A program made the translations under genes and the position numbers. A DNA stretch of 57,397 nt. It comes from Candidatus Nomurabacteria bacterium (GTDB lineage: Bacteria; Patescibacteriota; Minisyncoccia; Phycocordibacterales; UBA5272). Positions within the stretch are counted from its first letter, which is position 1; each line of letters starts with the position of its first letter. Below, piece after piece: positions 18,674 through 54,435 of this stretch. The notes beneath the pieces were generated by a model. That model was not told the DNA's origin, searched no databases, and worked only from the letters and a program-made list of their open reading frames with translations. Location: assembly GCA_003518045.1 (NCBI GenBank), contig DOZK01000020.1, positions 19,292 to 76,688 on the forward strand, given 5' to 3'.

Positions 18674-19480
18674 ATGGAAAGGAAAACAAATATCATAGCA
18701 ACAATAGGTCCGGCCACTAATAAAAAAGAAATTCTTTTACAGATATTACCTTTGATTGATATGGTTAGGCTTAATTTTTCTTGGGGGACACATGAAGAAA
18801 TGTCAGAAATAATTTCTTTAGTGAGAGAAGTAAGTGAGAAGATTGGTAAAAAAATTCTTATCATACAAGATTTATCAGGGCCCCGTACTCAAGAAAAAGA
18901 TGGGCATCATTTTACAGATGGTGCTACAGAAGTCCTTACAGAAAAAGATTTAAATGATTTGGTTTTTGGAGTTTCAAAAAATGTGGATTATGTCGCAATG
19001 TCTTATGTTGGGAAAGTAGATGACATAAAAGACTTACGTAATCATATGACAATTTTGGGCGCAAATATTCCAGTAATTGCAAAAATAGAAAGAAAAATCG
19101 CTGTGGAAAATATTGAGACAATTATTGATGAGTCAGATGCAATAATGATTGCAAGAGGGGATTTAGGATTAGCATTTCCGATAGAAGAAATTCCATTCCT
19201 TGAAAGAAGAATACTTTCAGCCTGTAATAAGAAAAATAAATATGTAATAGTTGCAACTGAGATGTTGCTTTCTATGGTAAAAAAAGATAGACCAACAAGA
19301 GCAGAAGTTACAGATGTTGCTTTCGCCGTTACAGGTGGAGCAAGTGCGGTGATGTTATCTGAAGAAACAACAGAAGGGGATTATCCAGTTGAAACCGTGA
19401 AGATATTGGATAGAATAATTAGAAACGCAGAGGCCCATAAGGTTTTATTTTGGCTAGAGAGCAGTGAAGTAGAAAAGTAA
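18674..19480 (+). CDS. pyk: minimal pyruvate kinase (A-domain barrel only)
   Basis: 268 aa. KTNIIATIGPA, RLNFSWG, DLSGPR, LTEKDL.DL.FGV...VDYVAMSYV, IAKIE, MIARGDLG, ATEMLLSM, PTRAEVTDVA and MLSEETTEG are all present. The B-lid and C-terminal domains are absent. Confidence 0.7.
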   Translation: MERKTNIIATIGPATNKKEILLQILPLIDMVRLNFSWGTHEEMSEIISLVREVSEKIGKKILIIQDLSGPRTQEKDGHHFTDGATEVLTEKDLNDLVFGVSKNVDYVAMSYVGKVDDIKDLRNHMTILGANIPVIAKIERKIAVENIETIIDESDAIMIARGDLGLAFPIEEIPFLERRILSACNKKNKYVIVATEMLLSMVKKDRPTRAEVTDVAFAVTGGASAVMLSEETTEGDYPVETVKILDRIIRNAEAHKVLFWLESSEVEK

Positions 19481-20630: not shown

Positions 20631-20728
20631 TGTCATCCTAGGCTTGACCTAGAATCCAGTGTCCACTGGATTCCAAATCCTCGCCTTCGTGATTACACTA
20701 TGGCGTGGCAAGCAAGTTTGGAAAGACA
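20631..20728. repeat. TGTCA multi-hairpin repeat (copy 2, third hairpin expanded/degenerate)
   Basis: TGTCA-[TCCTAGG cttga CCTAGAA]-[TCCAGTG tc CACTGGA]-[TTCCAAA ...39 nt... TTTGGAA]-AGACA. Confidence 0.7.
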
Positions 20729-24242: not shown

Positions 24243-24277
24243 CAGACACTGGATTCCAAATTAAATTTGGAATGACA
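24243..24277. repeat. partial TGTCA-family repeat (one and a half hairpins)
   Basis: cagaCACTGGA-[TTCCAAA ttaa ATTTGGAA]-TGACA. Confidence 0.6.
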
Positions 24278-24317
24278 TGAATACGAATTTGTATTACTAC
24301 GCACTACGCACTACTTA

Positions 24318-28993: not shown

Positions 28994-29133
28994 TGTCATT
29001 CCAAACTTGATTTGGAATCCAGTGTCTTTAATTTAAGTAGGCAGTAACCAGTGGGCAGTAATCAGTAATACAAATACAGACACTGGACCCGCCTTGCCCG
29101 GCGAGGCAGGCCCTGATTTTCATCAGGATGACA
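28994..29133. repeat. TGTCA multi-hairpin repeat, long variant (copy 4)
   Basis: TGTCA-[TTCCAAA cttga TTTGGAA]-TCCAGTGTC...cagtaaccagtgggcag...CAGACACTGGA-[cccgccttgcccggcgaggcagg]-[CCCTGAT tttc ATCAGGA]-TGACA. Confidence 0.8.
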
Positions 29134-30437: not shown

Positions 30438-31082
30438 ATGAGCACAAAATCAACTGCCACGTTCCCACAAGCCGCGCATCTATTGACCTTGTTTGGTCAG
30501 AAAGATGTTAGCAAGGAACAGTTTGGTCAACTCGTTGACCTTGGACTGCTTTCTGACTTGCTTGATTCCGACCCGACGAAGGTCGACCGCGACAAGTTTC
30601 GGGATGTGCTTGGTCTCAAAATCACAGTGACACCTGTTGCTGAATTGGTGAGTTCAATCATCACCGTTGACCGTTCTGTTTGCCCATCGTACCCCGATTG
30701 GGTGACAAAGGTTATTTACCCGCAATTTGTGGGTATGGGCCCAGTGGGTTACGATGTAACCACACTCAAGCAGTGGCTACATGACGATCAGAAATCTGGT
30801 GTCGTGGCTGGCAACCTGATTCATGAATACCTGAAGAGCAACAAAATGCTTGAAGGGTGTCTCGGTCTTCGTGACCTGGAAGAAATACAGAAGAAGGGTA
30901 TCGCCTTTTTCCGGAAATATTTCCAGGGCAAGGCCGTCTTCGGATGGAAGTCTGTCGTACGGGACTCGAATGGCGACCTGCGTGTGCCGTGTCTGGTCGA
31001 GGACGGTGGTGAGGTTCTTCTGAACTGGCGCTGGCTTGTCTTTGACTGGTTCTCCAATAACCCCGCGCTTCGTTTCGTTTGA
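30438..31082 (+). CDS. DGR target protein 1 (variable C-terminus)
   Basis: 214 aa and visibly GC-rich. The C-terminal 41 aa (VVRDSNGDLRVPCLVEDGGEVLLNWRWLVFDWFSNNPALRFV) are encoded by VR1. The terminal ..RF.-type ending resembles CLec-fold DGR targets. Confidence 0.8.
   Translation: MSTKSTATFPQAAHLLTLFGQKDVSKEQFGQLVDLGLLSDLLDSDPTKVDRDKFRDVLGLKITVTPVAELVSSIITVDRSVCPSYPDWVTKVIYPQFVGMGPVGYDVTTLKQWLHDDQKSGVVAGNLIHEYLKSNKMLEGCLGLRDLEEIQKKGIAFFRKYFQGKAVFGWKSVVRDSNGDLRVPCLVEDGGEVLLNWRWLVFDWFSNNPALRFV
30955..31077 (+). repeat. DGR variable repeat VR1
   Basis: Gap-free 123-nt alignment to 31400-31522 with 17 mismatches, all opposite adenines of the TR copy. Confidence 0.85.
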
Positions 31083-31132
31083 ACTTCGGGCTTGGTCACT
31101 TTGTTTTTTAGACACTTTGACCTTAACCCTTT

Positions 31133-31170
31133 GTCCCGCACCTAGTGATAGTGTGCGGGACTTTTGTTTT
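31133..31170 (+). terminator. hairpin/terminator just 3' of VR1
   Basis: GTCCCGCAC-ctagtgatagt-GTGCGGGAC followed by ttttgtttt. Confidence 0.65.
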
Positions 31171-31177
31171 GTATACT

Positions 31178-31573
31178 AAAACCGAGAGTAGATAATGAAT
31201 GCATGATTATGGTTATGCATCATCGAAATCAGTATCCATATGTCCAGAATATTTAAGATTATAGTTTTAAATAGCGTGGCGTATGTAGACACTTCAAAAA
31301 TGAAGTTACTTGGTATGGTGTGCTAGACATTGTTATGTCAAATAAAATTCAGCCCTGAGATTTTTCAAGGGGTGGTGATATAGATGGCATATTATATAAT
31401 CGTACGGAACTCGAATGGCAACCTGAATGTGCCGTATCTGATCGAGAACGATGGTAAGGTTATTCTGAACTGGAACTGGCTTGACAATGACTGGAACTCC
31501 AATAACCCCGCGCTTCGTTTCGCAACTTATTTCATTTCTAAATGCCAACATTTTATGTTGGCATTTAGTTTTT
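31178..31573 (+). ncRNA. putative stand-alone DGR template RNA 1 (leader + TR1 + terminator)
   Basis: TATACT box at 31172-31177. A 51-nt leader (31184-31234) is 43/51 identical to 49820-49870. TR1 follows, then the terminator CTAAATGCCAACA-tttta-TGTTGGCATTTAG plus a T-run (31538-31573). Confidence 0.5.
31400..31522 (+). repeat. DGR template repeat TR1
   Basis: Asn-codon-rich (AAC/AAT) in the VR frame (RNSNGNLNVPYLIENDGKVILNWNWLDNDWNSNNPALRF). It is the adenine-bearing partner of VR1. Confidence 0.85.
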
Positions 31574-31760
31574 CTTTTCTGCTTGTTGTTTTGTTAATTG
31601 CCCATTCCATCCACCTAGCATTTTACCTATTTCGTTTGTTTTCTCAGAAAGAGAAATATATTTTTTGGTATCGAGTGATTTTGTTTCAAATAAAATTAGT
31701 ATAAGAATATTAAACGTATCTAGCTTTCGAATCGCTATACGAACAAAGGTAATAAAGATA
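31565..31760 (-). pseudogene. truncated avd (accessory variability determinant) remnant
   Basis: The minus-strand frame reads ...RIAIRKLDTFNILILILFETKSLDTKKYISLSEKTNEIGKMLGGWNGQLTKQQAEKKN*. This aligns to the C-terminal half of the Avd at 50330-50725. There is no N-terminal half and no start codon. Confidence 0.7.
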
Positions 31761-38485: not shown

Positions 38486-38548
38486 TGTCATCCTGATGAA
38501 AATCAGGATCCAGTGTCCACTGGATTCCAAATCAAGTTTGGAATGACA
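38486..38548. repeat. TGTCA multi-hairpin repeat, archetypal 63-nt three-hairpin unit (copy 5)
   Basis: TGTCA-[TCCTGAT gaaa ATCAGGA]-[TCCAGTG tc CACTGGA]-[TTCCAAA tcaag TTTGGAA]-TGACA. Three 7-bp hairpins are closed by a 5-bp stem. Confidence 0.85.
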
Positions 38549-38580
38549 CAAACACAAGTTTCCTGATTTAAAAAATATTT

Positions 38581-43883: not shown

Positions 43884-46800
43884 ATGAACGAAAACAACAA
43901 ACAAAAAACAATATCAGAAAAAGAGCAAGAGATTTTAAATTTCTGGCAGGAAAATAAAATCTTTGAAAAATCAATTGAAACTCCAGCTGGTGAAAAAGCC
44001 AAAGGAGATTTCTCTTTTTATGATGGCCCACCATTTGCAACAGGGCTACCACACTTTGGCCATATTCTTGCGGGAACAATAAAAGATGCAATTCCTCGTT
44101 ATCAAACGATGAATGGTAAAAGTGTTCGTCGTAAATGGGGATGGGACTGCCACGGTCTTCCAATTGAAAATTTGATTGAGAAAAAATTAGGACTAAAAAG
44201 TAAAAAAGATATTGAAGATTTTGGTGTTGGAAAATTTAATAAAGATGCGAATGACAGTGTTCTTCAATATGAAGAAGAGTGGAAAAAAGTAATGCCAAGA
44301 TTAGGCAGATGGGCAGATATGGAACATCCATATAAAACAATGGACGCGACTTATACAGAAAGTATTTGGTGGTCATGGAAAACTTTATATGAAAAAGGTC
44401 TTGCTTATGAGGGGAATAAAATGATGCATATTTGTCCACGTTGTGAGACGCCACTTGCTCAATCAGAAGTTGGTCTTGAATATCATGATGTTACGGATTT
44501 ATCTGTAACAGCAAAGTTTGAACTAGTAGATGAGCCGGGGACTTTTGTTTTAGCGTGGACTACAACGCCGTGGACATTACCAGGAAATGTAGCTCTTGCT
44601 CTCAGTAAAGACGCCGAGTATGTAAAAGTCTTATCAAAAGAAGAGGGGAGTACAGAGCAAGAAGTAAGTAAATACATTGTTGCAAAAAGTCGACTAGAGG
44701 AGGTTTTTAAGGGTAAGGAATATGAAATAGTTGAAGAATTTAAAGGAGAGAAATTAGTTGGCAAATCATATAAACCACTATTCCCATATTTTGAAGATAA
44801 AGAAATTGAGAATAAAGAAAATATTTGGAAAATTTGGCATGCGGATTTTATTACTCTTGATACCGGTACTGGTATTGCTCATGAAGCACCAGCATTCGGT
44901 GCGGAAGATATGGAACTTGCAAAGGCAAATAATATTCCTGTAATTAAGCATGTAAAAATGGATGGAACTTTTACAGCGGACGTTACAGATTTTGCTGGAA
45001 TGAAAGTAAAAGTAAAAGATGATACTCAATCGGCTGACATTGAAATAATAAAATGGCTAGCACACAATGGAGAACTTTTTGAAAAGCATAAAATAATTCA
45101 CTCATACCCACTTTGTTGGAGATGTAAAACCCCGTTACTTAACTATGCGACATCAAGTTGGTTTGTTGATGTTCCAAAAATGAAAGATAGATTAATTGAA
45201 GAAAATAAAAAAATTATTTGGGTGCCAGAGCATATTCGAGATGGGCGATTTGGAAAATGGCTAGAGGGTGCGCGTGAATGGGCGGTCTCACGTACTCGTT
45301 ATTGGGGTGCGCCACTTCCAGTTTGGAAAAATGAAGATGGGGAGATGATTATAATTGGCTCTTTAAAAGAATTAGCTGAGAAAAATAAACAACAACCAAA
45401 AAATATTTATTATGTAATGCGTCATGGAGAAGCCGAAAGTAATGTAGCAGGGATAATTGACTCAGATGGAAGTGAAACTAATAATCTTACAGAAAAAGGA
45501 ATAGCACAGGCAAAACTAAGCGCAGAAAATCTTAAAGATAAAAATATTGATGTGATTTTTACTTCGCCATTTTTAAGAACAAAGAAAACAGCAAAAATAG
45601 TTTCAGATATTTTAGGTGGTGTTGAAATTATTGAAGATATGCGTCTTAAGGAAGTCAATGTAGGTATTTATGACAAAAGAAAAGTGTCTGACTATTTGAA
45701 AGAAGTTGGAAAATTAAAATATCTTACACTGGATAATCGTGTTAAAGGAGGGGAAACACACAGAGAGGTTATGAATCGTATGGTGCAGGTGTTTATGGAA
45801 ATGGAAGAAAAATATGAAGGGAAAAATATTTTATTTGTTACCCACGGTGGGCCAGCCAGGATGTTTGTAGCTGGTGCGCATAATCTTACAGAAGAAGAAT
45901 TACTTATTGATGAAGCAACTGATGAAGCAAAACTTTATCCAAAAAACGCAGAAGTTGTAAAAGTCTCGCCATTAATAATTCCTCGTGATGAAACTGGGGC
46001 TGTTAATCTTCATCGTCCTTATATTGATAACACTGAACTATTAGTTGATGGGAAAACATATAAACGTATTCCGGATGTATTTGATTGTTGGTATGAATCA
46101 GGTTCAATGCCATTTGCTCAACTTCACTATCCGTTTGAAAATAAAGAAATTTTTGCAAAAAATTATCCGGCAGATTTTATTGCCGAAGGTTTAGACCAAA
46201 CACGCGGATGGTTTTATTCACTTATCAATTTAGGTGTAGGATTATTTGATAAAGCTCCGTATAAACATGTGGCAGTGAATGGACTTATTATGGCAGAGAC
46301 GGGTATGAAGTTATCAAAGAGTGAGAAAAATTATACAGACCCAATGGAGCTTGTAGAAAAGTATGGGGCGGACTCTATGCGTTACGCACTGTTATCTAGT
46401 CCAGTTGTAAAAGGGGAGAATTTACTTTTTGGTGATGATATTGTTTCTGATATTTATAAAAAGTTAGTTTCTCGATTATTAAACGTGCTTTCATTATATG
46501 AAATGAATAAGCCTGAAAATGTTATTGCAAAAAATACATCAAGTGATGTATTAGATAGATGGATGATTTCTAGGGTGCATGAATTATTGCGTGATGCGAC
46601 AAAAGGATATGACTCATATAAATTAGATGAAGCGACTCGTGGGACAGGAGATTTAATCGATGATATTTCTGTTTGGTATACAAGAAGATCACGCGAAAGA
46701 TTAAAGGGTGATATGGGTGAGGAAAGTCAAATGCGTGCTTACGTTACTTTGACTTATGTATTACAAACATTAGCAAAAACTATGGCACCAGTTATGCCAT

Positions 46801-47345
46801 TCACTGCTGAAATTGTTTATAAAGCTTTAAATGGTGAAAGAGAGTCTGTCCATCTTGAAAGTTGGCCAACAGTTGGAGTTATTGAAGATGAAGTTATAAA
46901 AGAAATGAAAAATGTAAGAGATATAGTTACGGTTGCTCTTTCACTTCGAACACAATCTAAAATCGCAGTTCGTCAGCCACTTCAAAAAATTACTCTGAAA
47001 GATGAGATAAAAAGCGAGTATCACCAAATAATTTTGGACGAACTTAATGTTAAAGAAATCGCATTTGCTAATTCTTTAACTGAGGTCTGCGTATTAGATA
47101 CAGAAATTACTGAAGAATTAAAATTAGAAGGGGACGTGAGAAATCTTATGCGTGCCGTACAAGATGCTCGTAAAGAAAAAGGATTAACTCCGCAAGATTC
47201 TATTATTCTTTTGACAGATTATTCTGTGCCAGAAAAGTTTAAAGAAGTATTAATGAATACTTGTAAAATTAGTGAAATAAAAGGAGGAAGCGGAAAATAC
47301 AAAGCTGAGACCGGAGTAGGGGAGGTGTCGTTTGATATAAATTAA
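43884..47345 (+). CDS. ileS: isoleucine--tRNA ligase (type 2-like) with an inserted histidine-phosphatase domain
   Basis: HIGH (PHFGHILAG), WDCHGLP, an editing domain, WAVSRTRYWGAPLPVW, and KMSKS (MKLSKSEKN). About 195 extra aa with RHG/PGAM motifs sit between IIIGSLKEL and NLHRPYID. Confidence 0.93.
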   Translation: MNENNKQKTISEKEQEILNFWQENKIFEKSIETPAGEKAKGDFSFYDGPPFATGLPHFGHILAGTIKDAIPRYQTMNGKSVRRKWGWDCHGLPIENLIEKKLGLKSKKDIEDFGVGKFNKDANDSVLQYEEEWKKVMPRLGRWADMEHPYKTMDATYTESIWWSWKTLYEKGLAYEGNKMMHICPRCETPLAQSEVGLEYHDVTDLSVTAKFELVDEPGTFVLAWTTTPWTLPGNVALALSKDAEYVKVLSKEEGSTEQEVSKYIVAKSRLEEVFKGKEYEIVEEFKGEKLVGKSYKPLFPYFEDKEIENKENIWKIWHADFITLDTGTGIAHEAPAFGAEDMELAKANNIPVIKHVKMDGTFTADVTDFAGMKVKVKDDTQSADIEIIKWLAHNGELFEKHKIIHSYPLCWRCKTPLLNYATSSWFVDVPKMKDRLIEENKKIIWVPEHIRDGRFGKWLEGAREWAVSRTRYWGAPLPVWKNEDGEMIIIGSLKELAEKNKQQPKNIYYVMRHGEAESNVAGIIDSDGSETNNLTEKGIAQAKLSAENLKDKNIDVIFTSPFLRTKKTAKIVSDILGGVEIIEDMRLKEVNVGIYDKRKVSDYLKEVGKLKYLTLDNRVKGGETHREVMNRMVQVFMEMEEKYEGKNILFVTHGGPARMFVAGAHNLTEEELLIDEATDEAKLYPKNAEVVKVSPLIIPRDETGAVNLHRPYIDNTELLVDGKTYKRIPDVFDCWYESGSMPFAQLHYPFENKEIFAKNYPADFIAEGLDQTRGWFYSLINLGVGLFDKAPYKHVAVNGLIMAETGMKLSKSEKNYTDPMELVEKYGADSMRYALLSSPVVKGENLLFGDDIVSDIYKKLVSRLLNVLSLYEMNKPENVIAKNTSSDVLDRWMISRVHELLRDATKGYDSYKLDEATRGTGDLIDDISVWYTRRSRERLKGDMGEESQMRAYVTLTYVLQTLAKTMAPVMPFTAEIVYKALNGERESVHLESWPTVGVIEDEVIKEMKNVRDIVTVALSLRTQSKIAVRQPLQKITLKDEIKSEYHQIILDELNVKEIAFANSLTEVCVLDTEITEELKLEGDVRNLMRAVQDARKEKGLTPQDSIILLTDYSVPEKFKEVLMNTCKISEIKGGSGKYKAETGVGEVSFDIN

Positions 47346-47397
47346 TTATTCTTCAGTTTTTCACTGGACCAATTCTTAATTACAAAACTCCAACGCA

Positions 47398-47498
47398 TGT
47401 CATTCCAAACTTGATTTGGAATCCAGTGTCCACTGAAATTATAAGGCACTGGACCCGCCTTGCCGGCGAGGCAGGTCCTGATTTTCATCAGGATGACA
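47398..47498. repeat. TGTCA multi-hairpin repeat, four-hairpin variant (copy 6)
   Basis: TGTCA-[TTCCAAA cttga TTTGGAA]-[TCCAGTG ...18 nt... CACTGGA]-[cccGCCTTG ccgg CGAGGCagg]-[TCCTGAT tttc ATCAGGA]-TGACA. Confidence 0.85.
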
Positions 47499-47574
47499 CG
47501 GGGAAACATTGGTGTCGTAATTGCCTTAAAAGTAAAGAAGTTGCAATTCTATATGTTTTTGTTACTATGAAAAT

Positions 47575-47820
47575 ATGAGTAAAATAACATTAAAAAATAA
47601 CAGAGAATATACTGCTTTTTTTGAGGAAAATGAACTCGGAGGATATACAATTACTGTGCCTGCACTTCCTGGGCTTGTTACAGAAGCAAAAGATATGAAG
47701 CAAGCAAAGGTTGTGTTACAAGATGCCATTACTTGTTATATTGAGGGGCTAAAGAAATCAAAAGTAGAAATACCAAAAGAAAGTTTTGTTGCAAGTATGC
47801 GTTTGCAGTTTGCTGTGTAA
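47575..47820 (+). CDS. hicB: HicB-family antitoxin
   Basis: 81 aa. YTAFFEENELGGYTITVPALPGLVTEAKDMKQA...DAI..YIEGL is the UPF0150/HicB N-domain pattern. Confidence 0.75.
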   Translation: MSKITLKNNREYTAFFEENELGGYTITVPALPGLVTEAKDMKQAKVVLQDAITCYIEGLKKSKVEIPKESFVASMRLQFAV

Positions 47821-47825
47821 TTCGT

Positions 47826-48044
47826 ATGCCAAAACTTCCAATTCTTACACCAAAAAAGTTAGTAAAAATTTTGTGTAAAATTGGTTTTTATATTCATCAT
47901 CAAACAGGGAGCCACATTAACTTACGCCATAGTATTAAAAATAATTTACATGTGGTTATTCCTTATCATACGAGAGATTTAGCTCCAAAAACTCTCAAGT
48001 CAATTATTATGCAAGCAGATATTTCCATAGATGATTTATTATAA
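47826..48044 (+). CDS. hicA: HicA-family mRNA interferase toxin
   Basis: 72 aa. LTPKKLVKIL.K.GF...HQTGSHINLRH...VVIPYHTRDLAPKTLKSII. Confidence 0.8.
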   Translation: MPKLPILTPKKLVKILCKIGFYIHHQTGSHINLRHSIKNNLHVVIPYHTRDLAPKTLKSIIMQADISIDDLL

Positions 48045-48054
48045 TTAAAAAACC

Positions 48055-49737
48055 ATGCCACCAAAAAAATTTGAAGGAAAGTTTGGAATACCACAATCTA
48101 ATTCTATTGACTCAGAGCTTACCTCCGCACTCTATAGACTTCCAGACTCAATAAGTCTGCCTTTTATAGAAAGCATGACAGAAGATATCGTTAGTAAAGT
48201 AAATAAAAGATTAGAAGAAATGTATGAGGAATCTTTATTAGGAAATGATAAAGGTATTGCAAATGTGAGAATTAGACGTGCTCTTTCTGATGAACAAAGA
48301 AAAATACTTCAACTCAAACTTACAAGGCACTTTGAAGACAATGGTGAATCTGCAAAAATAGACGTACCAGTATGTGTTGATGCACTCATAGAGTCACCAA
48401 GATTTTTAGAGAGTATGAAAGGAAGTATGGACAAACTTTTTGCAATGCATGAAATGAAGATATTACAAAAGATTGCCGAATTAAGACGTAAACGAGCAGA
48501 GATGAGTGGAGATGAATCTTTGTATAATCCTTATGAAAATCTTTTTGAAACAAGCAGTGGCAAATATTGTATGGCAAGACTTTTGAATATGCCTCATTTA
48601 GAAGAAGAGTCTGAATATATGGATCATTGTGTTGGAACAAGTACAAGCTATGTTAACAAAATCAAGAAAGGTGAGGTCGAGATACTTTCTTTTCGAGACA
48701 CATCAACTAATAATCCAATCGCTACTATTGAGTATGATCTTAAGAGTAAAAGATTACTACAGATAAAATTAATGAGTGATAAGTTGCCAAAGTTAAGCGA
48801 CTCATTTTCTGCTGATTTATTAGAAGCAATAGAAAAATTGGAGACGACAACAAATGATCTAGGTGTTCCTAGAGTTATTGAGGGTAGTCTAGCTAAGGAC
48901 ATGAAGACACTCCTATCTTTACAAGAGAAATCCAAAAAACAAGAAGTATATACAAGAGATGACCTTTTATTTCTATATGAAATTAGTTCACCTATCCAAT
49001 GTTTTGATAGTGGAAGAGATCCACTTATTGATGAGTTATTGCGAAAAAGAAACCGCCAAGAAGACATACAACTCCTTTGTAATTGTGAGTCACAGTTTAT
49101 TGCATTTGACTTCATTGATATCAATGAACAAACTCAAGTTTTCTGTGAAGACACAGGGAAGAAAATCACTTTTGTTGATTTTCGTCTAGAAGCAAACCAA
49201 AAGAAACTCCCGCAACTTCTCGAACTCGCACAGCACATCAAAGAAAGTGGTAGTCCCGCGAGACCGGATATGTCATTTGAAGGTGGAATAGTAACTATAG
49301 ATATATCAGAAGAAAAATTAAAAGATACAAAGACAGTCTTACAATCATACAAAGAAGCAGACAGTAGCTCTCCATCATGGGTATGGGATGAATGGATAAA
49401 CGCACCCTATACTAAACCAAAATTACCACTAGAAACTATTATTTTGTCATATAACAAAGATACAAACACAAGAGAATCATCAGATAAAATTGTATCAGAT
49501 ATGAATAGATTAGGATTAAGACCTGCAACATTAGAAGAACTTATTGCTCTTGGAGTAATAAAACCAGAATTTAATAAACGAAGTGGCTCTTACCTTGTTG
49601 AACTAACAAAATATTCTTTGGATGGTGGTTCCTACGTTCCCTGCGTGGACTGGGGTGGCGACGAGCGTGACTTGGTCGGGTATGAGTGGGGGAGTAGGTG
49701 GATTGACAGGAATCGTTTTGTTTGCGTTCGCAAATAG
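48055..49737 (+). CDS. DGR target protein 2 (variable C-terminus)
   Basis: 560 aa. The last ~40 aa (SLDGGSYVPCVDWGGDERDLVGYEWGSRWIDRNRFVCVRK) are encoded by VR2, and the ..RFVCVRK ending is typical of CLec-fold DGR targets. A central MDHCVGTSTSYVNKIKKGEVEILSFRD block is reminiscent of PcfJ-like domains (weak call). Confidence 0.8.
   Translation: MPPKKFEGKFGIPQSNSIDSELTSALYRLPDSISLPFIESMTEDIVSKVNKRLEEMYEESLLGNDKGIANVRIRRALSDEQRKILQLKLTRHFEDNGESAKIDVPVCVDALIESPRFLESMKGSMDKLFAMHEMKILQKIAELRRKRAEMSGDESLYNPYENLFETSSGKYCMARLLNMPHLEEESEYMDHCVGTSTSYVNKIKKGEVEILSFRDTSTNNPIATIEYDLKSKRLLQIKLMSDKLPKLSDSFSADLLEAIEKLETTTNDLGVPRVIEGSLAKDMKTLLSLQEKSKKQEVYTRDDLLFLYEISSPIQCFDSGRDPLIDELLRKRNRQEDIQLLCNCESQFIAFDFIDINEQTQVFCEDTGKKITFVDFRLEANQKKLPQLLELAQHIKESGSPARPDMSFEGGIVTIDISEEKLKDTKTVLQSYKEADSSSPSWVWDEWINAPYTKPKLPLETIILSYNKDTNTRESSDKIVSDMNRLGLRPATLEELIALGVIKPEFNKRSGSYLVELTKYSLDGGSYVPCVDWGGDERDLVGYEWGSRWIDRNRFVCVRK
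49615..49733 (+). repeat. DGR variable repeat VR2
   Basis: Gap-free 119-nt alignment to 50038-50156 with 15 mismatches: 14 opposite TR adenines and one opposite a TR thymine (TR position 50068). Confidence 0.85.
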
Positions 49738-49813
49738 TACTTAGGTTTTAGTTACTTTACTTTTGCTTTAGAACTTTTGACTTAAACAAATTTTAGAAGT
49801 ATCACGTATACTA

Positions 49814-50235
49814 GAACATGAGAGTAGATAATGAGTGTATGGATATTTTTATACAACATCGAAATCAGTAGGGTATAGATGAGAATTCAAGTACAAGAAT
49901 AATGTATAGGAAGAGTATCTATATTTGTTTCAAAAAAGAAATCTACTTGGCGTAGTTATGTTAAGTATTATTATACTAGCTTAAATTCAACATATGGTTG
50001 CGACTGTGTGTGGTGGTATGCATGCATAACTACGAAATCTTTGGATGGTGATTCCTACGTTCCCTACTTGAACTGGAATGGCGACAAGCGTAACTTGAAC
50101 AGGAATGAGTGGAGGAATAGGTGGAATGACAGGAATCGTTTTGTTTGCGTTCGCAATTTAATTTCTTTACATAACACGACCTCCGAGTCCAAGACATGAG
50201 TCTGCTGACTCAGGAGGTCGTGTTATGTTTTTTTG
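49814..50235 (+). ncRNA. putative stand-alone DGR template RNA 2 (leader + TR2 + terminator)
   Basis: TATACT box at 49807-49812, then the conserved 51-nt leader at 49820-49870 and TR2. A long hairpin follows, ACATAACACGACCTCC(gagtc)...(gactc)aGGAGGTCGTGTTATGT plus a T7 run (50169-50235). Confidence 0.5.
50038..50156 (+). repeat. DGR template repeat TR2
   Basis: The adenine-rich partner of VR2. In the VR frame it reads SLDGDSYVPYLNWNGDKRNLNRNEWRNRWNDRNRFVCVR, with many AAY Asn codons. Confidence 0.85.
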
Positions 50236-50245
50236 TATGAATTTG

Positions 50246-50319
50246 TGTCATTCCCGCGAAGGCGGGAATCCAGTGTCCAAATGAGTATGGGCCTGGATTC
50301 CCGCCTTCGTGGGAATGAG
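50246..50319. repeat. TGTCA multi-hairpin repeat (copy 7, partly degenerate)
   Basis: TGTCA-[TTCCCGC gaag GCGGGAA]-[TCCAG ...19 nt... CTGGA]-[TTCCC gccttcgt GGGAA]-TGAG. Confidence 0.7.
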
Positions 50320-50329
50320 TTACGAAAAA

Positions 50330-50725
50330 CTAATTAAGCTGTTTTACAACTTGATTATGCCAACCACCGAGCATCTTACCTATTTCGTGTAACTTTTCGC
50401 TGAGTGCTATATATTGTTTTGTTTCAAAGGCTTTTATAGTATGTGCCACACGAAGCATTACTTTTGCAGTATCGAGTAGTTGTATCGCTTTCTGAATATA
50501 TTGTAGCTTCTGTTCTTTCTTCACAAAAAGTGCCGATGAAGTATATTGGATAACTTCACATAGGAGAGTATCTATTTTTACACCGAGCGAGTATCTATGA
50601 ACTTTTGGAAAGTGTATGATGTAGGAATGCCAAAGTACATAAGCAACTTCGAGTTTGAGGATAAGAGGAGGAGTACTGATTTCGTGGGGGGGGGGGCGAT
50701 ATTCATAGCAAAAAGTGTAACACAC
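50330..50725 (-). CDS. avd: DGR accessory variability determinant (Avd, four-helix-bundle family)
   Basis: 131 aa. FPKVHRYSLGVKIDTLLCEVIQ...LDTAKVMLRVAH...LSEKLHEIGKMLGGW fits Avd / 23S-IVS-type four-helix-bundle proteins. It is divergent from the RT. The only ATG start places a C11 tract (RPPPH) inside the 5' end. Confidence 0.75.
   Translation of the reverse strand: MCYTFCYEYRPPPHEISTPPLILKLEVAYVLWHSYIIHFPKVHRYSLGVKIDTLLCEVIQYTSSALFVKKEQKLQYIQKAIQLLDTAKVMLRVAHTIKAFETKQYIALSEKLHEIGKMLGGWHNQVVKQLN
50686..50696. repeat. G11/C11 homopolymer tract
   Basis: Eleven consecutive G on the plus strand. The tract lies within avd codons 10-13 and 62 nt upstream of the annotated RT start. Confidence 0.95.
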
Positions 50726-50757
50726 AGTATGATGATATTGTTACTTTTGAAAAGCTA

Positions 50758-51579
50758 TTGGAATCATGGAATGATTTTGTGAGTGGGAAAAGAAAGAGAG
50801 AAGATGTGAATACATTTGCATTACGGCTGTCTGATAATTTGATTGACCTTTTTTATGAACTAAAAAGCGATGTGTACATTCATGGAAATTACGAAGAGTA
50901 TGTTATTTGCGACCCGAAGAAGCGTATCATTCATAAAGCAAGTGTGAGAGATAGAGTAGTGCATCGACTACTCTATAATGCTTTGTATAGCTATTTCGAT
51001 AGACGATACATCTATGACTCATATAGTTGTCGAATTGGAAAAGGAACACATAAAGCACAAGCTAGATTTAGATATTTTGTAAATGCTGTAAGTAAAAATT
51101 ATACGAAACCATGTTATGTTCTCAAGTTTGATATTAAGAAATGTTTTGAAAGTATTGATGCTGACATTCTTAAAAATATACTTTTCACACATATACAAGA
51201 TGAGCGATTAAAAAGTCTTGTCTTTAAAATTATTGATAGTTTTCCGAAAGGATTGCCACTAGGAAATTTAACTTCACAGTTATTCATTAACATCTATCTT
51301 CATGAATTAGATTGGTATGTAAAGCAGACACTTCATTGCACGCATTATTTTAGATATGCGGATGATATGGTTGTTATTTCTCATGATAAAAAAGAATTAG
51401 AAAATTTCTACAAGCAATTACAAATTTTCTTGAAACAGGAACTTCATCTGACAACACATAAAAAAGTAATTAGTAGTATCTACTCAGGAATTGATATTCT
51501 CGGGTTAGTTTTCTTTGCAAAGTATCAGAGATTGCGAAGGAGTACAGAGAGGAGAAAGAATGCGAGAGGTGGTAAATAA
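50758..51579 (+). CDS. DGR-type reverse transcriptase
   Basis: RT motifs: KKRIIHKASVRDRVVHRLL, FDIKKCFESID, the DGR-diagnostic LPLGNLTSQLFINIYL ([LIV]GxxxSQ), and YADDMVVIS. The annotated start is TTG, and homology (YDDIVTFEKLL) continues upstream to the stop at 50677 without an ATG. Confidence 0.85.
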   Translation: MESWNDFVSGKRKREDVNTFALRLSDNLIDLFYELKSDVYIHGNYEEYVICDPKKRIIHKASVRDRVVHRLLYNALYSYFDRRYIYDSYSCRIGKGTHKAQARFRYFVNAVSKNYTKPCYVLKFDIKKCFESIDADILKNILFTHIQDERLKSLVFKIIDSFPKGLPLGNLTSQLFINIYLHELDWYVKQTLHCTHYFRYADDMVVISHDKKELENFYKQLQIFLKQELHLTTHKKVISSIYSGIDILGLVFFAKYQRLRRSTERRKNARGGK

Positions 51580-51698
51580 CAAACATACCGTTTTGCGTTT
51601 ATTAACTAACAACTATAAACTAGTAACTATTGAATGTAATTGTATTCTGTATTATCTGGTATCTAAAATCTAATGTCTAACGTCCACTATCTATCCCC

Positions 51699-52253
51699 AT
51701 GTCTATCGAAAAATACGTAACCAAAGCCTTAGTAATAACTTCTTTTGACCAAAGCGAAAATGATCGTGTGTATAAAATGTTCACACGCGAATTTGGTTTG
51801 ATTATTGCTCACGCTAAAAGTATTCGTAAATTAGAAAGTAAATTACGCGCGCATATTCTTCCACGAACAGTTAGCTTTGTTACCTTGGTAAAAGGAAAAG
51901 AAGTTTGGCGCCTCGTTGGTGCTGAAGAACAAAAAGCATCATCTACAATTATTCATGAAGTTACAGAATTAATTTCTCGATTTATTCACGGTGAAGAACC
52001 ACATAAAGTTCTTTATGATAGAGTCGAAGAATTTCTCGAAAAGTCAGATGCTTATGACAAACAAAAAGCAAGAATTTTATTTTATTATATTTTGCTTGTT
52101 GAGCTCGGTTATGCAGATGCAAAAGTTATTGGTGCAAAAAGTATAAAAGAATATAGAGATTGGAATATAGATGATTTATACACACATTTTCTTTTATCTG
52201 AAAAACAAATTAAGGAGCATATAAGAAACGTTGTTAAGGATATACAATTATAA
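51699..52253 (+). CDS. recO: short RecO-like DNA repair protein
   Basis: 184 aa. N-terminal OB-fold pattern (ALVITSFDQSENDRVYKMFTREFGLIIAHAKSIRK..SKLR..L.P). Confidence 0.55.
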   Translation: MSIEKYVTKALVITSFDQSENDRVYKMFTREFGLIIAHAKSIRKLESKLRAHILPRTVSFVTLVKGKEVWRLVGAEEQKASSTIIHEVTELISRFIHGEEPHKVLYDRVEEFLEKSDAYDKQKARILFYYILLVELGYADAKVIGAKSIKEYRDWNIDDLYTHFLLSEKQIKEHIRNVVKDIQL

Positions 52254-52360
52254 GTAGAAGGTGGAAAGTAGATGGTGGAGGGCAGAAGTTTCTATACACA
52301 TATATTATTAACCATTTTCCACTCTCTACTTTCTACTCTCCACTTGCTATACTGTCTTAC

Positions 52361-54232
52361 ATGAACCCAGAAGAAAATGAAGATATGCATCAGATTGATG
52401 ATTTGGAGCACAAATTATATGACCCTAAACAAGTAAATGGTGAAGATAGTCTTCATCATGTCCATAATCATAAAGAGGTAGACCTTCCAACAGATTGGGG
52501 AGAAAATACTCCAATAATTACACCAGTAGAAGAAAAAGAAACGAGTTTTTCTTTTGGTACAAAAGTGCTTTTCACTGCACTTATATTTTTATTTGTCGTA
52601 CTTTCGTTTACCGCATGGAGAGTTTTATCTTCTCGTAATGTTGTCTCTTTAGATAATATTGATATTACATTAGATAGTAAACCCTATGTAGACGGAGGGG
52701 AGACTACCCCGTTTAGTGTTTCTGTTTTTAATAGAAACACTTCATCATTACAAGAGGCTGTGATTATTATTTCTTATGAAAAAGGTATTGGTGTTTTAGA
52801 CGAACAACAAAAAGTTTATGAAAAGAGAGTACTCGGTACAATTTTACCAAACTCTCTCAAGAAAGAAGATTTAAATATTACTTTATATGGTGCGGCAGAT
52901 GAGGTGAGAGTTATTTCTGTTAAGTTAGAATATAAAGTTGCTGGAGCTAATGCAGTTTTTAATAAACCTGCCACGACTCAAGTGGTTCTAAAGACTCCAC
53001 CGCTCTCTGTTCACATAGATGGACAAACTAGCTTGGTACAAGGACAGAATAGTACCTTTAATGTTTTTGTTTCTAATAACACTTCGATAGAAATTAAAGA
53101 TAGTTTAGTTGTTTTATCCATACCTACAACTTTTACTTTAAATAAAACAGAACCAAAACCAAATACAAAAGGAATGATGTGGAGTATTCCTTCTATTTTA
53201 CCTGGAGCCACATCTACCATAACAATAAGTGGGTCTTTTGCTGGAATGCCAGGCGAAGTAGATACAATTAAAGCGAGTGTTGGGGCTGCCTCAACGGCCG
53301 TTAATCAAATGGGAGTTGTTTATTCGCAAGAAGCCCACAGTATTTCTATAACCTCTCCACTTTTATCTTTAGGGTCTAGATTAGAAACAGATAGAGGAGG
53401 TGCCGAGAGTTTACGTTATGGTGATAAAGCCATTGTTACTATTTTTTATGAAAATAAAAATGACAAAGCACTACGAGATGTTTTAGTGGTTGCAAATATT
53501 GGTGGCACGGCCCCAATTATATCGGGGATTTCCTCCGACGGTGGGTATTATGATTCAATTAATAAAACTGTAACATTTAATCCTGTTACTAACCGCGAAT
53601 TAAGTTCCGTAGCCCCTGGGGCTAAAGGAGAATTTAAGATTTATATACCAGTTGTTTCAAAGGGAAATAATTCACCAAAACTTACTCTTGTCATAAATGG
53701 AACAGCAACATCAGTCTCAAAAGATGACACGGCTACACAAATTTCTAAAGTTTGGAATGTGGAGGGAAGCGCTAACCTTAATGCTTTCACTTCTTATAAA
53801 AATTCTACTTTTACAAATACTGGACCTATTCCTCCTAAAGCAAATGTTAATACAACATATGGTGCACATTTAATTGTATCTGCTCAAAATTCTTTAGTTA
53901 ATTCTCGAGTATCATTTATACTTCCAGCTTATGTAACTTTTACCGGAGTTTATGCAACTGGAACAAATGTAACTTATGATAACAGAACCAGAACAGTTGT
54001 TTGGGATATAGGAAATATTTCAGCTGGGGGTGTAGTTTCTAACGATATTCAAATCAGTGTAAAACCTTCTCAAAGTCATGTAGGGCAAACTCCACCTATA
54101 ACCTCTAGCGTAACTTTGGAAGCGGATGAAGCAGACAGCAAAGCTCGTATAAGAAATATATCTAATGCACTTACAACAGAGCTTTTAAGAGAACAGGGGT
54201 CAGTGGATATTTCTCACGTAGTTGCGAATTAG
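52361..54232 (+). CDS. large membrane-anchored extracytoplasmic protein with beta-rich (DUF11/CARDB-like) repeats
   Basis: 623 aa. One TM (VLFTALIFLFVVLSFTAW) followed by repeated Ig-like beta segments. No catalytic motif seen. Confidence 0.4.
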   Translation: MNPEENEDMHQIDDLEHKLYDPKQVNGEDSLHHVHNHKEVDLPTDWGENTPIITPVEEKETSFSFGTKVLFTALIFLFVVLSFTAWRVLSSRNVVSLDNIDITLDSKPYVDGGETTPFSVSVFNRNTSSLQEAVIIISYEKGIGVLDEQQKVYEKRVLGTILPNSLKKEDLNITLYGAADEVRVISVKLEYKVAGANAVFNKPATTQVVLKTPPLSVHIDGQTSLVQGQNSTFNVFVSNNTSIEIKDSLVVLSIPTTFTLNKTEPKPNTKGMMWSIPSILPGATSTITISGSFAGMPGEVDTIKASVGAASTAVNQMGVVYSQEAHSISITSPLLSLGSRLETDRGGAESLRYGDKAIVTIFYENKNDKALRDVLVVANIGGTAPIISGISSDGGYYDSINKTVTFNPVTNRELSSVAPGAKGEFKIYIPVVSKGNNSPKLTLVINGTATSVSKDDTATQISKVWNVEGSANLNAFTSYKNSTFTNTGPIPPKANVNTTYGAHLIVSAQNSLVNSRVSFILPAYVTFTGVYATGTNVTYDNRTRTVVWDIGNISAGGVVSNDIQISVKPSQSHVGQTPPITSSVTLEADEADSKARIRNISNALTTELLREQGSVDISHVVAN

Positions 54233-54279
54233 AAATAAGTCTGTAAAGTCCATAAAGTTGAAAGCAAAATTCGCAATTG

Positions 54280-54346
54280 TGTCATTCCCGCGAAGGCGGG
54301 AATCCAGTGTCCAGAACCTGGATTCCAAATCAAGTTTGGAATGACA
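54280..54346. repeat. TGTCA multi-hairpin repeat (copy 8)
   Basis: TGTCA-[TTCCCGC gaag GCGGGAA]-[TCCAG gtgtccagaac CTGGA]-[TTCCAAA tcaag TTTGGAA]-TGACA. Confidence 0.85.
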
Positions 54347-54435
54347 CAGGTTCCATTGGTTGGTTTAATTGAACTTTGTAAACTTTTAACTTTATGGACT
54401 TTCAACTAACCTAATTTTTATGTTAGGATAGTTGT

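Follow-up and report, generated by a model that had tools for sequence, protein, structure and literature searches.

The stretch analysed here (the window; 57,397 nt, positions 19,292 to 76,688 of contig DOZK01000020.1, Candidatus Nomurabacteria bacterium) is chromosomal DNA of a bacterium of the Candidate Phyla Radiation (CPR). It holds two cassettes of diversity-generating retroelements (DGRs), locus 1 and locus 2, with IleRS, NusG, RecO and tRNA genes around both. Each cassette has a target gene with a variable repeat (VR) at its 3′ end and, downstream of it, a template repeat (TR). The spacer between VR and TR encodes a structured RNA leader, and each TR probably lies in the middle of its own non-coding RNA gene. 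To our knowledge, everything known about how a DGR reverse transcriptase (RT) and its partner Avd recognize and prime their template comes from one phage element of different layout. DGRs reach their greatest abundance in CPR and DPANN organisms, and about 80% of CPR RTs are DGR RTs according to a review. The genes and repeats of the two cassettes are as follows.

48055–49737, plus strand: target gene 2, with a PcfJ-like N-terminal domain (Pfam), VR2 at its 3′ end and its stop codon at 49737
49604–49733, plus strand: VR2, a direct repeat with TR2; natural alleles differ only here
about 50038–50156, plus strand: TR2; homology to VR2 begins 4–5 nt past the end of leader helix P4
50330–50725, minus strand: avd of locus 2 (Pfam bAvd, E 5.4e-13)
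50701–51579, plus strand: DGR RT of locus 2 (Pfam RVT_1, E 1e-18; YADD motif)
30438–31082, plus strand: target gene 1, intact, VR1 at its 3′ end
30955–31077, plus strand: VR1, a direct repeat with TR1
31400–31525, plus strand: TR1, from repeat comparison with VR1
31586–31753, minus strand: avd remnant of locus 1, only the C-terminal 56 aa (tblastn E 1.7e-14, 46% identity to locus-2 Avd aa 74–129)

Locus 2 carries the features by which a DGR is recognized: a TR/VR pair that differs at adenine sites, an adjoining RT and Avd. Mismatches fall at TR adenines in 16 of 20 cases for TR2/VR2, the 4 non-A mismatches being at the repeat's 5′ edge or close to it, and in 17 of 17 cases for TR1/VR1. The RT is 100% identical to NCBI entry DEP94_02600 (protein P0001), modelled from ATT 50701; its first canonical start is TTG 50758. 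Its assignment to the DGR clade is drawn from context rather than from a phylogeny, its relatives all carrying TR/VR pairs. Locus 2 has architecture B3: TR and RT share a strand, the TR being upstream, and avd lies between the two in the reverse orientation. Genes are ordered and oriented exactly as in B3 of Wu et al. 2018 (PMC5758913), whose TR-(avd)-RT class makes up 90% of the CPR DGR set; that study classified gene order only and describes no RNA structure, promoter or terminator. An avd-TR-RT transcript like that of phage BPP-1 is impossible here because avd is on the other strand, as the first-pass annotation of this DNA had recognized. The statement on avd holds for locus 2 (50330–50725, minus strand), but locus 1 has only the C-terminal remnant and no gene. 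A search of the window found no second RT, and none follows the remnant. The layout recurs widely. A scan for the RT in one genome per GTDB species gave 24 loci; where the filter detected a TR/VR pair (15 loci), the TR lies about 400–550 nt upstream of the RT and the VR upstream of the TR, and avd is on the strand opposite the TR and RT in 20 of the 21 loci with an Avd match.

The VR-to-TR spacers of the two cassettes had been reported as homologous even though their repeats differ, and the details of that report stand. GTATACTA is shared (31171–31178 and 49806–49813), and a 51-nt block (31184–31234 versus 49820–49870) is identical at 43 of 51 positions (84%), the only such pair in the window. 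The block contains a hairpin with a compensatory change, TGCAT/ATGCA at locus 1 versus TGTAT/ATACA at locus 2, which is helix P2 of the fold described below; a second shared patch reads TTCAAAAA.GAA..TACTTGG. The conserved leader proposed on this basis is real, but it extends over about 215 nt with six helices, not 51 nt. Most of its structure, including helix P4 and the pairing of the leader with the linker after the TR, had been missed. The leader features are listed below.

49820–50034, plus strand: structured leader of the TR2 RNA (RNAalifold, covariance model match, pair counts, conservation profile)
49822–29 with 49941–48, 49835–43 with 49848–56, and 49872–94 with 49904–25, plus strand: TR2 leader helices P1, P2 and P3
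49951–61 with 50024–34, 49964–68 with 49973–77, and 49990–98 with 50003–11, plus strand: TR2 leader helices P4, P5 and P6
49857–71 (CATCGAAATCAGTAG), 49978–89 (AGCTTAAATTCA) and 50012–16 (GGTGG), plus strand: conserved junctions of the TR2 leader
31184–31396, plus strand: structured leader of the TR1 RNA, of a subtype common to the related loci L060, L037, L048 and L069
31186–93 with 31304–11, 31199–207 with 31212–20, and 31236–58 with 31267–89, plus strand: TR1 leader helices P1, P2 and P3
31314–23 with 31386–96, 31326–30 with 31335–39, and 31352–60 with 31365–73, plus strand: TR1 leader helices P4, P5 and P6

The leader accompanies this kind of DGR wherever enough DNA is available. A hidden Markov model of the two window spacers matched the whole spacer and not merely the 51-nt block in relatives with RT identity of 49–77%. 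The leader is present in 18/18 genome loci found by RT similarity that have enough upstream DNA, and in 10/10 further loci obtained via RT homologues. A motif scan of metagenomes (pattern AGTAGATA-N24-36-TCGAAATCAGT) returned 54 stretches, about 35 of them chance matches without a leader, and added a further ten or so leader loci. A calibrated covariance model (R1), built from the RNAalifold leader alignment, locates leaders in 37 distinct related loci, in each case immediately before the TR; all of these loci have the B3 layout. Scores are 146–242 bits in close relatives and 20–77 bits in distant relatives, whose RTs are 42–51% identical (Uhrbacteria, Saccharibacteria, and metagenome-assembled genomes (MAGs) labelled Gammaproteobacteria, Lentisphaerae and Ignavibacteriae). 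The window leaders score 217 bits (TR2) and 151.8 bits (TR1). An insertion in P6 hides one locus, L010, from the model, though it aligns by eye. The first-pass annotation had suggested building such a model from the two copies and their homologs, and had named absence of the leader from relatives as evidence that would speak against a self-contained TR RNA gene; the model recovers the leader directly upstream of the TR in relatives, and every relative with enough upstream DNA has the whole unit.

The fold itself is established by covariation. RNAalifold on 21 leaders predicts six helices with 59 bp in all, of which 41 show compensatory double changes; 23 distinct full-length elements were aligned. 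In an alignment of 38 sequences, 95.1% of cells are paired versus 68.6% in column shuffles (0/500), and double changes occur in 53/59 pairs; sliding the partner by 1–3 columns lowers pairing to 32–56%. This alignment was fitted to the covariance model and so favours structure, and an independent MAFFT alignment yields the same helices. All 9 pairs of P2 covary. P4, which encloses P5 and P6, has 11 bp with compensatory changes in 11/11 pairs and 99% of cells paired; P6 is a UNCG-capped stem-loop. G-U pairs are frequent in the leader, which identifies the plus strand as the one transcribed. Columns conserved at 90% or more are 20 of 97 unpaired versus 7 of 118 paired, and the strictly conserved unpaired junctions read GA.AGUAG, CGAAAUC, ACU, U.AA.UCA and GGUG. 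Insertions of 13–110 nt in the aligned relatives are restricted to the tips of P3 and P5.

Mere common descent of two duplicated cassettes, with no function in the spacer, might explain the likeness of the two spacers, and both loci clearly come from DGR cassettes of the same layout. Yet the TRs and VRs have diverged far more than the leader core, and the leader is kept where the RT is only 42% identical, with compensatory changes in 53 of its 59 pairs; this explanation is barely credible. That the leader is a widespread covarying RNA family, forming the template RNA gene of B3-type DGRs, is well supported, and the family is a property of the ‘empty’ VR-to-TR spacer in the B3 architecture. A gathering-threshold search of Rfam returned tRNAs only, and permissive searches (E ≤ 10; the region and four relatives) gave only chance microRNA and small RNA matches on the terminator hairpin. 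The family has no Rfam match, and no earlier description of it was found in the DGR literature searched. Around the TR, the conservation survey of Handa et al. took in just 40 nt on the upstream side and 100 nt on the downstream side; a scaffold of about 215 nt upstream would escape it.

Two duplexes bracket the TR. On the 5′ side, the 3′ strand of P4 ends 3–5 nt before the TR/VR homology starts. On the 3′ side, a leader strand of 8–9 nt lying just 5′ of the P1 3′ strand (strand p) has its complement in the linker just 3′ of the TR (strand t).

49935–49942, plus strand: leader strand p of locus 2 (AAAGAAAT), complementary to linker t; candidate primer strand
50161–50168, plus strand: linker strand t of locus 2 (ATTTCTTT), complementary to p
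31298–31306, plus strand: leader strand p of locus 1 (AAATGAAGT)
31529–31537, plus strand: linker strand t of locus 1 (ATTTCATTT), complementary to AAATGAAGT; p:t 9/9 paired

The sequences of the two strands vary between groups. Most close relatives have AAAGAAAU with AUUUCUUU; the locus-1 subtype has AAAUGAAGU with ACUUCAUUU or AUUUCAUUU; distant relatives have UUGAUAAG with CUUGUCAA, CUUAUGAG with CUCAUGAG, or GCGGG with CCCGC. Across 9 sequence families, cognate p:t pairs are more stable than non-cognate ones (sum −62.4 versus −33.6 ± 7.1 kcal/mol; permutation p = 2.7e-4). With a gapless register, pairing reaches 81.9% of p:t cells versus 57.4% in shuffles (0/500), covariation is 0.586 versus 0.200, and double changes occur in 8/9 pairs; slid controls give 30–51%. 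In GC-rich relatives the duplex, as read from the sequences, extends over ACUCC:GGAGU, the last 5 nt of the TR, to a total of 12–14 bp. Strand p lies 8–10 nt upstream of the P4 5′ strand; the p:t and P4 duplexes are thus adjacent, as in BPP-1. Since both duplexes bracket the TR, the TR is a loop clamped between P4 and p:t.

Three further pairings were considered and rejected. A U.A-U triple helix of the leader A-tract, linker UUUCUUU and post-hairpin UUUUCUUU was dropped; the post-hairpin run is more simply a terminator U-tract, because in the locus-1 subtype the purine strand and linker have changed together while the U-run has not. Snap-back priming from the 3′ hairpin fails in that the U-run pairs with the upstream A-tract only in GC-rich relatives, not in the close group. 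The GGUGG after P6 (cf. BPP-1 Sp47-56, UAGGUGGUCA) as a primer strand finds no CACC-type complement near the TR 3′ end.

Leader and TR are flanked by candidate gene boundaries.

49807–49812, plus strand: predicted −10 box of the TR2 RNA gene, TATACT, at a distance of 7 nt from the first conserved G downstream (TAAACA-18-TATACT)
31172–31177, plus strand: predicted −10 box TATACT of the TR1 RNA gene
50169–50235, plus strand: terminator-like hairpin of locus 2 (hairpin 50169–50228, −40.3 kcal/mol, z −9.2, then T7)
31538–31578, plus strand: predicted terminator hairpin of locus 1 (hairpin 31538–31568, 14-bp stem, −18.3 kcal/mol, z −7.3, then TTTTTCTTTT)
31133–31170, plus strand: predicted terminator of target gene 1, upstream of the TR1 −10 box (hairpin 31133–31161 and TTTTGTTTT; −21 kcal/mol, z −6.9)

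Nearly all elements have a TAnnnT hexamer (TATACT, TATGCT, TATAAT and similar) 6–7 nt ahead of the first conserved G, and it stands out as TATAAT even in loci of 45–59% GC. The tally is 25/28 scored loci, from an approximate script whose anchors misfired for some loci. Conservation of sequence and structure starts sharply at GAGAG. At the other end, a strong hairpin and T-run after each TR had been noticed before, and folding energies bear this out. Both loci have the sequence of an intrinsic terminator (a stable GC-containing hairpin, then a U-run); a hairpin followed by TTTTCTTT occupies the same position after the TR in nearly all close relatives, and the locus-1 hairpin sequence is identical in L060. 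These features predict promoter and terminator functions for a TR RNA gene.

The stretch before the −10 box can also be read differently. The leader–TR RNA might have no promoter of its own and arise by read-through from the target mRNA, perhaps with processing, TATACT then belonging to the RNA or being a chance AT-rich stretch. No terminator separates the target stop codon at 49737 from the −10 box at locus 2, so read-through is possible there; −35 elements are weak or absent, and the stretch from VR to −10 box is itself conserved. Against this, a strong predicted terminator separates target gene 1 from its −10 box, terminator-like stems with T-runs precede the −10 box in GC-rich distant relatives, the TAnnnT hexamer keeps its distance of 6–7 nt from the first conserved nucleotide of the leader even at 45–59% GC, and conservation begins abruptly at GAGAG. 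Read-through as the sole source of the RNA is improbable. An independent TR RNA of about 0.4 kb, as the first-pass annotation had proposed, is upheld as a discrete unit of −10 box, leader, TR and terminator-like hairpin; its ends are predicted positions, and the lack of an upstream terminator at locus 2 qualifies its independence there.

The best explanation, held with fairly good confidence, is that each TR sits in the middle of its own non-coding RNA gene, with the leader as a scaffold for RT and Avd and the TR clamped by P4 and p:t. Each TR would be part of an independently transcribed plus-strand RNA of about 0.4 kb. Its gene would consist of a −10 box of the sigma-70 type (transcription probably starting about 7 nt further on), a leader of about 215 nt, a TR of about 120 nt, a linker of 12–17 nt, and a terminator hairpin with a U-run. 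The leader would be the ‘DGR RNA’ scaffold of the B3-type DGR clade, binding RT and Avd and positioning the template, and thus the functional counterpart of the BPP-1 Spacer and avd flank; a covarying plus-strand leader fits the role of an RT/Avd recognition scaffold. P4 would correspond to the BPP-1 ‘cPRT stop’ duplex and p:t to its template:primer duplex. By the same analogy, the leader would also prime: from its strand near P1b, at a nucleotide within or beside ...AUCUACUUGG, with the G of ...CG directly before CAA (G50153/C50154) as the first templated base.

Some observations weigh against this explanation. P1, being nearly invariant in sequence, shows slight covariation. For P1b (ACUCC) of the GC-rich relatives, the end of the TR (GGAGU) is a better partner than P1a, so that the RNA may form either P1 or the extended p:t duplex. 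The p:t register was chosen with a group-specific offset, and the duplex is weak or imperfect in L003, L007, L012 and L079. An unconstrained RNAduplex search of p against 300 nt downstream was noisy, AU-rich p being also complementary to the post-hairpin U-run; it was replaced by the position-restricted cognate versus non-cognate test and the gapless register count. No hairpin follows the TR in L015 and L017.

Another role for the leader can be imagined on the same evidence. It might be a cis-regulatory or stabilising 5′ domain controlling the amount of TR RNA (e.g. an attenuator that responds to a ligand or protein and acts together with the terminator downstream, or a nuclease shield) rather than an RT–Avd scaffold or primer. 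A complex multi-helical fold with conserved junctions is riboswitch-like, and p, being complementary to both the terminator's 5′ flank and its U-run, could modulate termination. But the leader strictly co-occurs and co-diverges with one RT/Avd clade, the locus-1 subtype going with a distinct RT/Avd sublineage, and its helices end exactly at the TR borders. Moreover, RT–Avd of BPP-1 needs such flanking RNA, and the B3 clade has no other candidate for it, only 12–17 nt and a hairpin following the TR. A purely regulatory leader is accordingly given little chance, slightly less than read-through, and the scaffold explanation is retained.

Natural alleles show locus 2 at work. Differences among the three members of the target-2 protein cluster are confined to the VR. 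One contig (L096; ENA ERZ909576, groundwater metagenome) equals window 45055–52737 over 7,683 nt save 5 substitutions, all 5 in VR2 and all 5 opposite TR2 adenines, while leader, TR, terminator, avd, RT and G11 tract are the same. A third VR2 allele (P0242) differs at one VR codon, giving 3 alleles on 7 contigs. Because the L096 contig differs from the window only at VR2 A-sites, locus 2 is active in nature.

The fate of locus 1 is different. Leaders of its subtype (L060, L037, L048 and L069) normally come with their own RT (44–50% identical to that of the window) and Avd (45–49%), and the sequence marks locus 1 as the apparent remnant of a second DGR sublineage whose RT and avd have been lost. 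The first-pass annotation had raised the possibility of trans use, whereby the orphan TR1 RNA gene is kept as the locus-2 RT–Avd diversifies target 1. Several features would suit this: the TR1 leader is structurally intact, its score being on par with relatives that have their own RT; its p:t duplex is fully paired; it keeps all invariant junction motifs common with locus 2; every TR1/VR1 mismatch is at an adenine; and target gene 1 is intact. However, the usual partnership of such leaders with their own RT and Avd, the truncation of the local avd to 56 aa with no RT, and the population data point the other way. Target-1 proteins encoded on 12 contigs, from several samples, are all the same, VR1 included, in contrast to the three VR2 alleles on seven, and the 15-billion-protein collection holds no target-1/VR1 variants. 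Source metagenomes of these contigs include SRR2177956, SRR2177968 and SRR6487400. Trans use is therefore rather unlikely, though less so than the two alternatives for the leader weighed above. In the simplest reading, which the data fit better, locus 1 is a relic frozen after one deletion.

The BPP-1 element offers the closest comparison. Its DGR RNA consists of the avd 3′ end, the TR and a 140-nt Spacer (Handa et al. 2018 NAR; bioRxiv 10.1101/2023.10.23.563531), the Spacer being the RT-10 motif (Weinberg 2017). For its anatomy, the cryo-electron microscopy preprint by Handa et al. and the sequence of BPP-1 were used. From 5′ to 3′ come avd strand a, the TR, an Avd-binding stem-loop, primer strand p, which pairs with TR117-129 and whose A56 primes, 2 nt, strand a′ (forming the 11-bp ‘cPRT stop’ with a), a short stem-loop and AA, a single-stranded ‘thumb ring’ and an RT-binding stem-loop (bioRxiv 10.1101/2023.10.23.563531). 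In the RNAs described here, the order is [P1a, P2, P3], p, P1b, P4a, P5, an A-rich single strand, P6, GGUGG, P4b, TR, t and hairpin. If the ends of the BPP-1 RNA are joined and the circle is opened between the Avd stem-loop and p, exactly this order results, plus an added 5′ domain.

The likenesses are several. In both systems the template is embedded in a structured non-coding RNA and followed by a hairpin, with DGR RT and Avd as protein partners and A-specific mutagenesis. A duplex of about 11 bp abuts the TR 5′ border in both; here it is P4, with its partner strand upstream of the TR rather than downstream. An adjacent duplex lies at the TR 3′ end, here the covariation-supported p:t, 8–10 nt from P4a, and beyond the stop-duplex strand come a small stem-loop, an A-rich single strand and another stem-loop. 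There are differences too. The scaffold is 3′ of the TR in BPP-1, whereas here nearly all of it is 5′; there is an extra 5′ domain (P1–P3); the TR RNA has its own predicted promoter and terminator; and after the TR come only a 12–17-nt linker and one hairpin, then avd on the other strand.

This comparison suggests that the leader–TR RNA matches a circular permutation of the BPP-1 DGR RNA. In its strong form, CPR's dominant DGR type (B3) would use a circularly permuted DGR RNA from its own gene, with primer strand, stop duplex and RT-binding elements 5′ of the template, a strand near P1b priming a branched RNA–cDNA, and only the terminator hairpin at 3′. This is put forward tentatively, at somewhat less than even odds. 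The match is an argument from topology, not homology: the BPP-1 Spacer has no sequence similarity to the leader, and model R1 gives no match in BPP-1. The locus-2 post-TR hairpin occupies the position of the Avd-binding stem-loop of BPP-1, but the post-TR hairpins here resemble ordinary terminators, not tetraloop-capped Avd-binding stems. If the permutation model is true, the DGR ribonucleoprotein tolerates re-threading of its RNA, and a separate gene could supply the template RNA.

Retrons provide a second point of reference. The retron msr-msd is a separately folded non-coding RNA that carries both the template and the 2′-OH priming nucleotide, and its cognate RT recognizes it through folded parts other than the template, which is bracketed by long-range pairing there as it is here. 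Retron RNA, however, lies directly upstream of the RT in the same transcript, and retrons are not known to have an Avd, a VR target or A-mutagenesis and have an RT of a different clade. None of the retron RNA families that Rfam holds gave a match.

The analysis contributes a secondary structure of the B3-class leader that covariation supports; the two duplexes around the TR with a specific candidate primer strand; a covariance model outside Rfam that finds TR RNA genes, orphans included; and natural-allele evidence for the activity of locus 2. If the proposed mechanism is true, the template RNA is a module that stands by itself and could in principle act in trans, made up of promoter, scaffold, any TR and terminator; it could be duplicated, exchanged and engineered apart from RT and Avd, which would be useful for targeted hypermutation.

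A palindromic intergenic repeat family resembling miniature inverted-repeat transposable elements or repetitive extragenic palindromes (MITE/REP-like; GTCATTCC...GGAATCCAGTGTC and partners) is scattered through the window.

50246–50320, 20631–20668, 28994–29031, 47398–47435, 54265–54359, 1240–1286, 24247–24290 and 38518–38561: MITE/REP-like repeats

Such an element sits in the P3 tip of L001 and L092, so this tip tolerates insertions. In the 80 nt after the VR, L008–L017 and L024 have CTYGG-like repeats in 3–6 copies (0.2–0.4 expected) at a spacing of 7–15 nt, and the same region of the AT-rich close group (window 31083–31126 and 49738–49790) has conserved degenerate CTT(T)AG/CTTGG units. The unit resembles leader strand P1b (ACUUGG / ACUCCG). 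By analogy with BPP-1's IMH/cruciform (IMH standing for initiation of mutagenic homing), the array may be a target-site recognition signal.

The junction of avd and RT has a peculiarity of its own.

50686–50696: G11 tract at the head-to-head avd/RT junction

A G8–G11 homopolymer lies exactly at this avd (minus)/RT (plus) junction in about 25 related loci, even at about 30% GC (e.g. L001 3999–4008, L002 3115–3124, L007 3998–4008, L060 3299–3309 and L065 2311–2320). It would read GGG(G) in the N-terminal region of RT and PPP(P) in that of Avd. After the stop at 50677, no canonical start lies in frame with the window RT; GTG 50684 would come into frame if the tract were G12. L060 and L065, two near-identical contigs, have tracts of different length (G11 versus G10). 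No link between DGRs and G tracts was found in the literature searched. The tract may be a slipped-strand phase (on/off) switch for RT/Avd expression. One Paceibacteria MAG (L007, JBDHUS010000011.1, 2–337 and 3667–4008, plus L020) has at least 3 avd/poly-G/RT-type junctions, two of these, on one contig, being 3.7 kb apart; multiple cassettes of B3-type DGR can therefore coexist in a small genome.

HicB/HicA-like antitoxin and toxin genes lie beside the DGR cassette in the window (47575–48055) and in close relatives. They are found between RT and recO in L081/L082 (1789–2260), and upstream of the target gene in L096 (2521–2990) and in the window.

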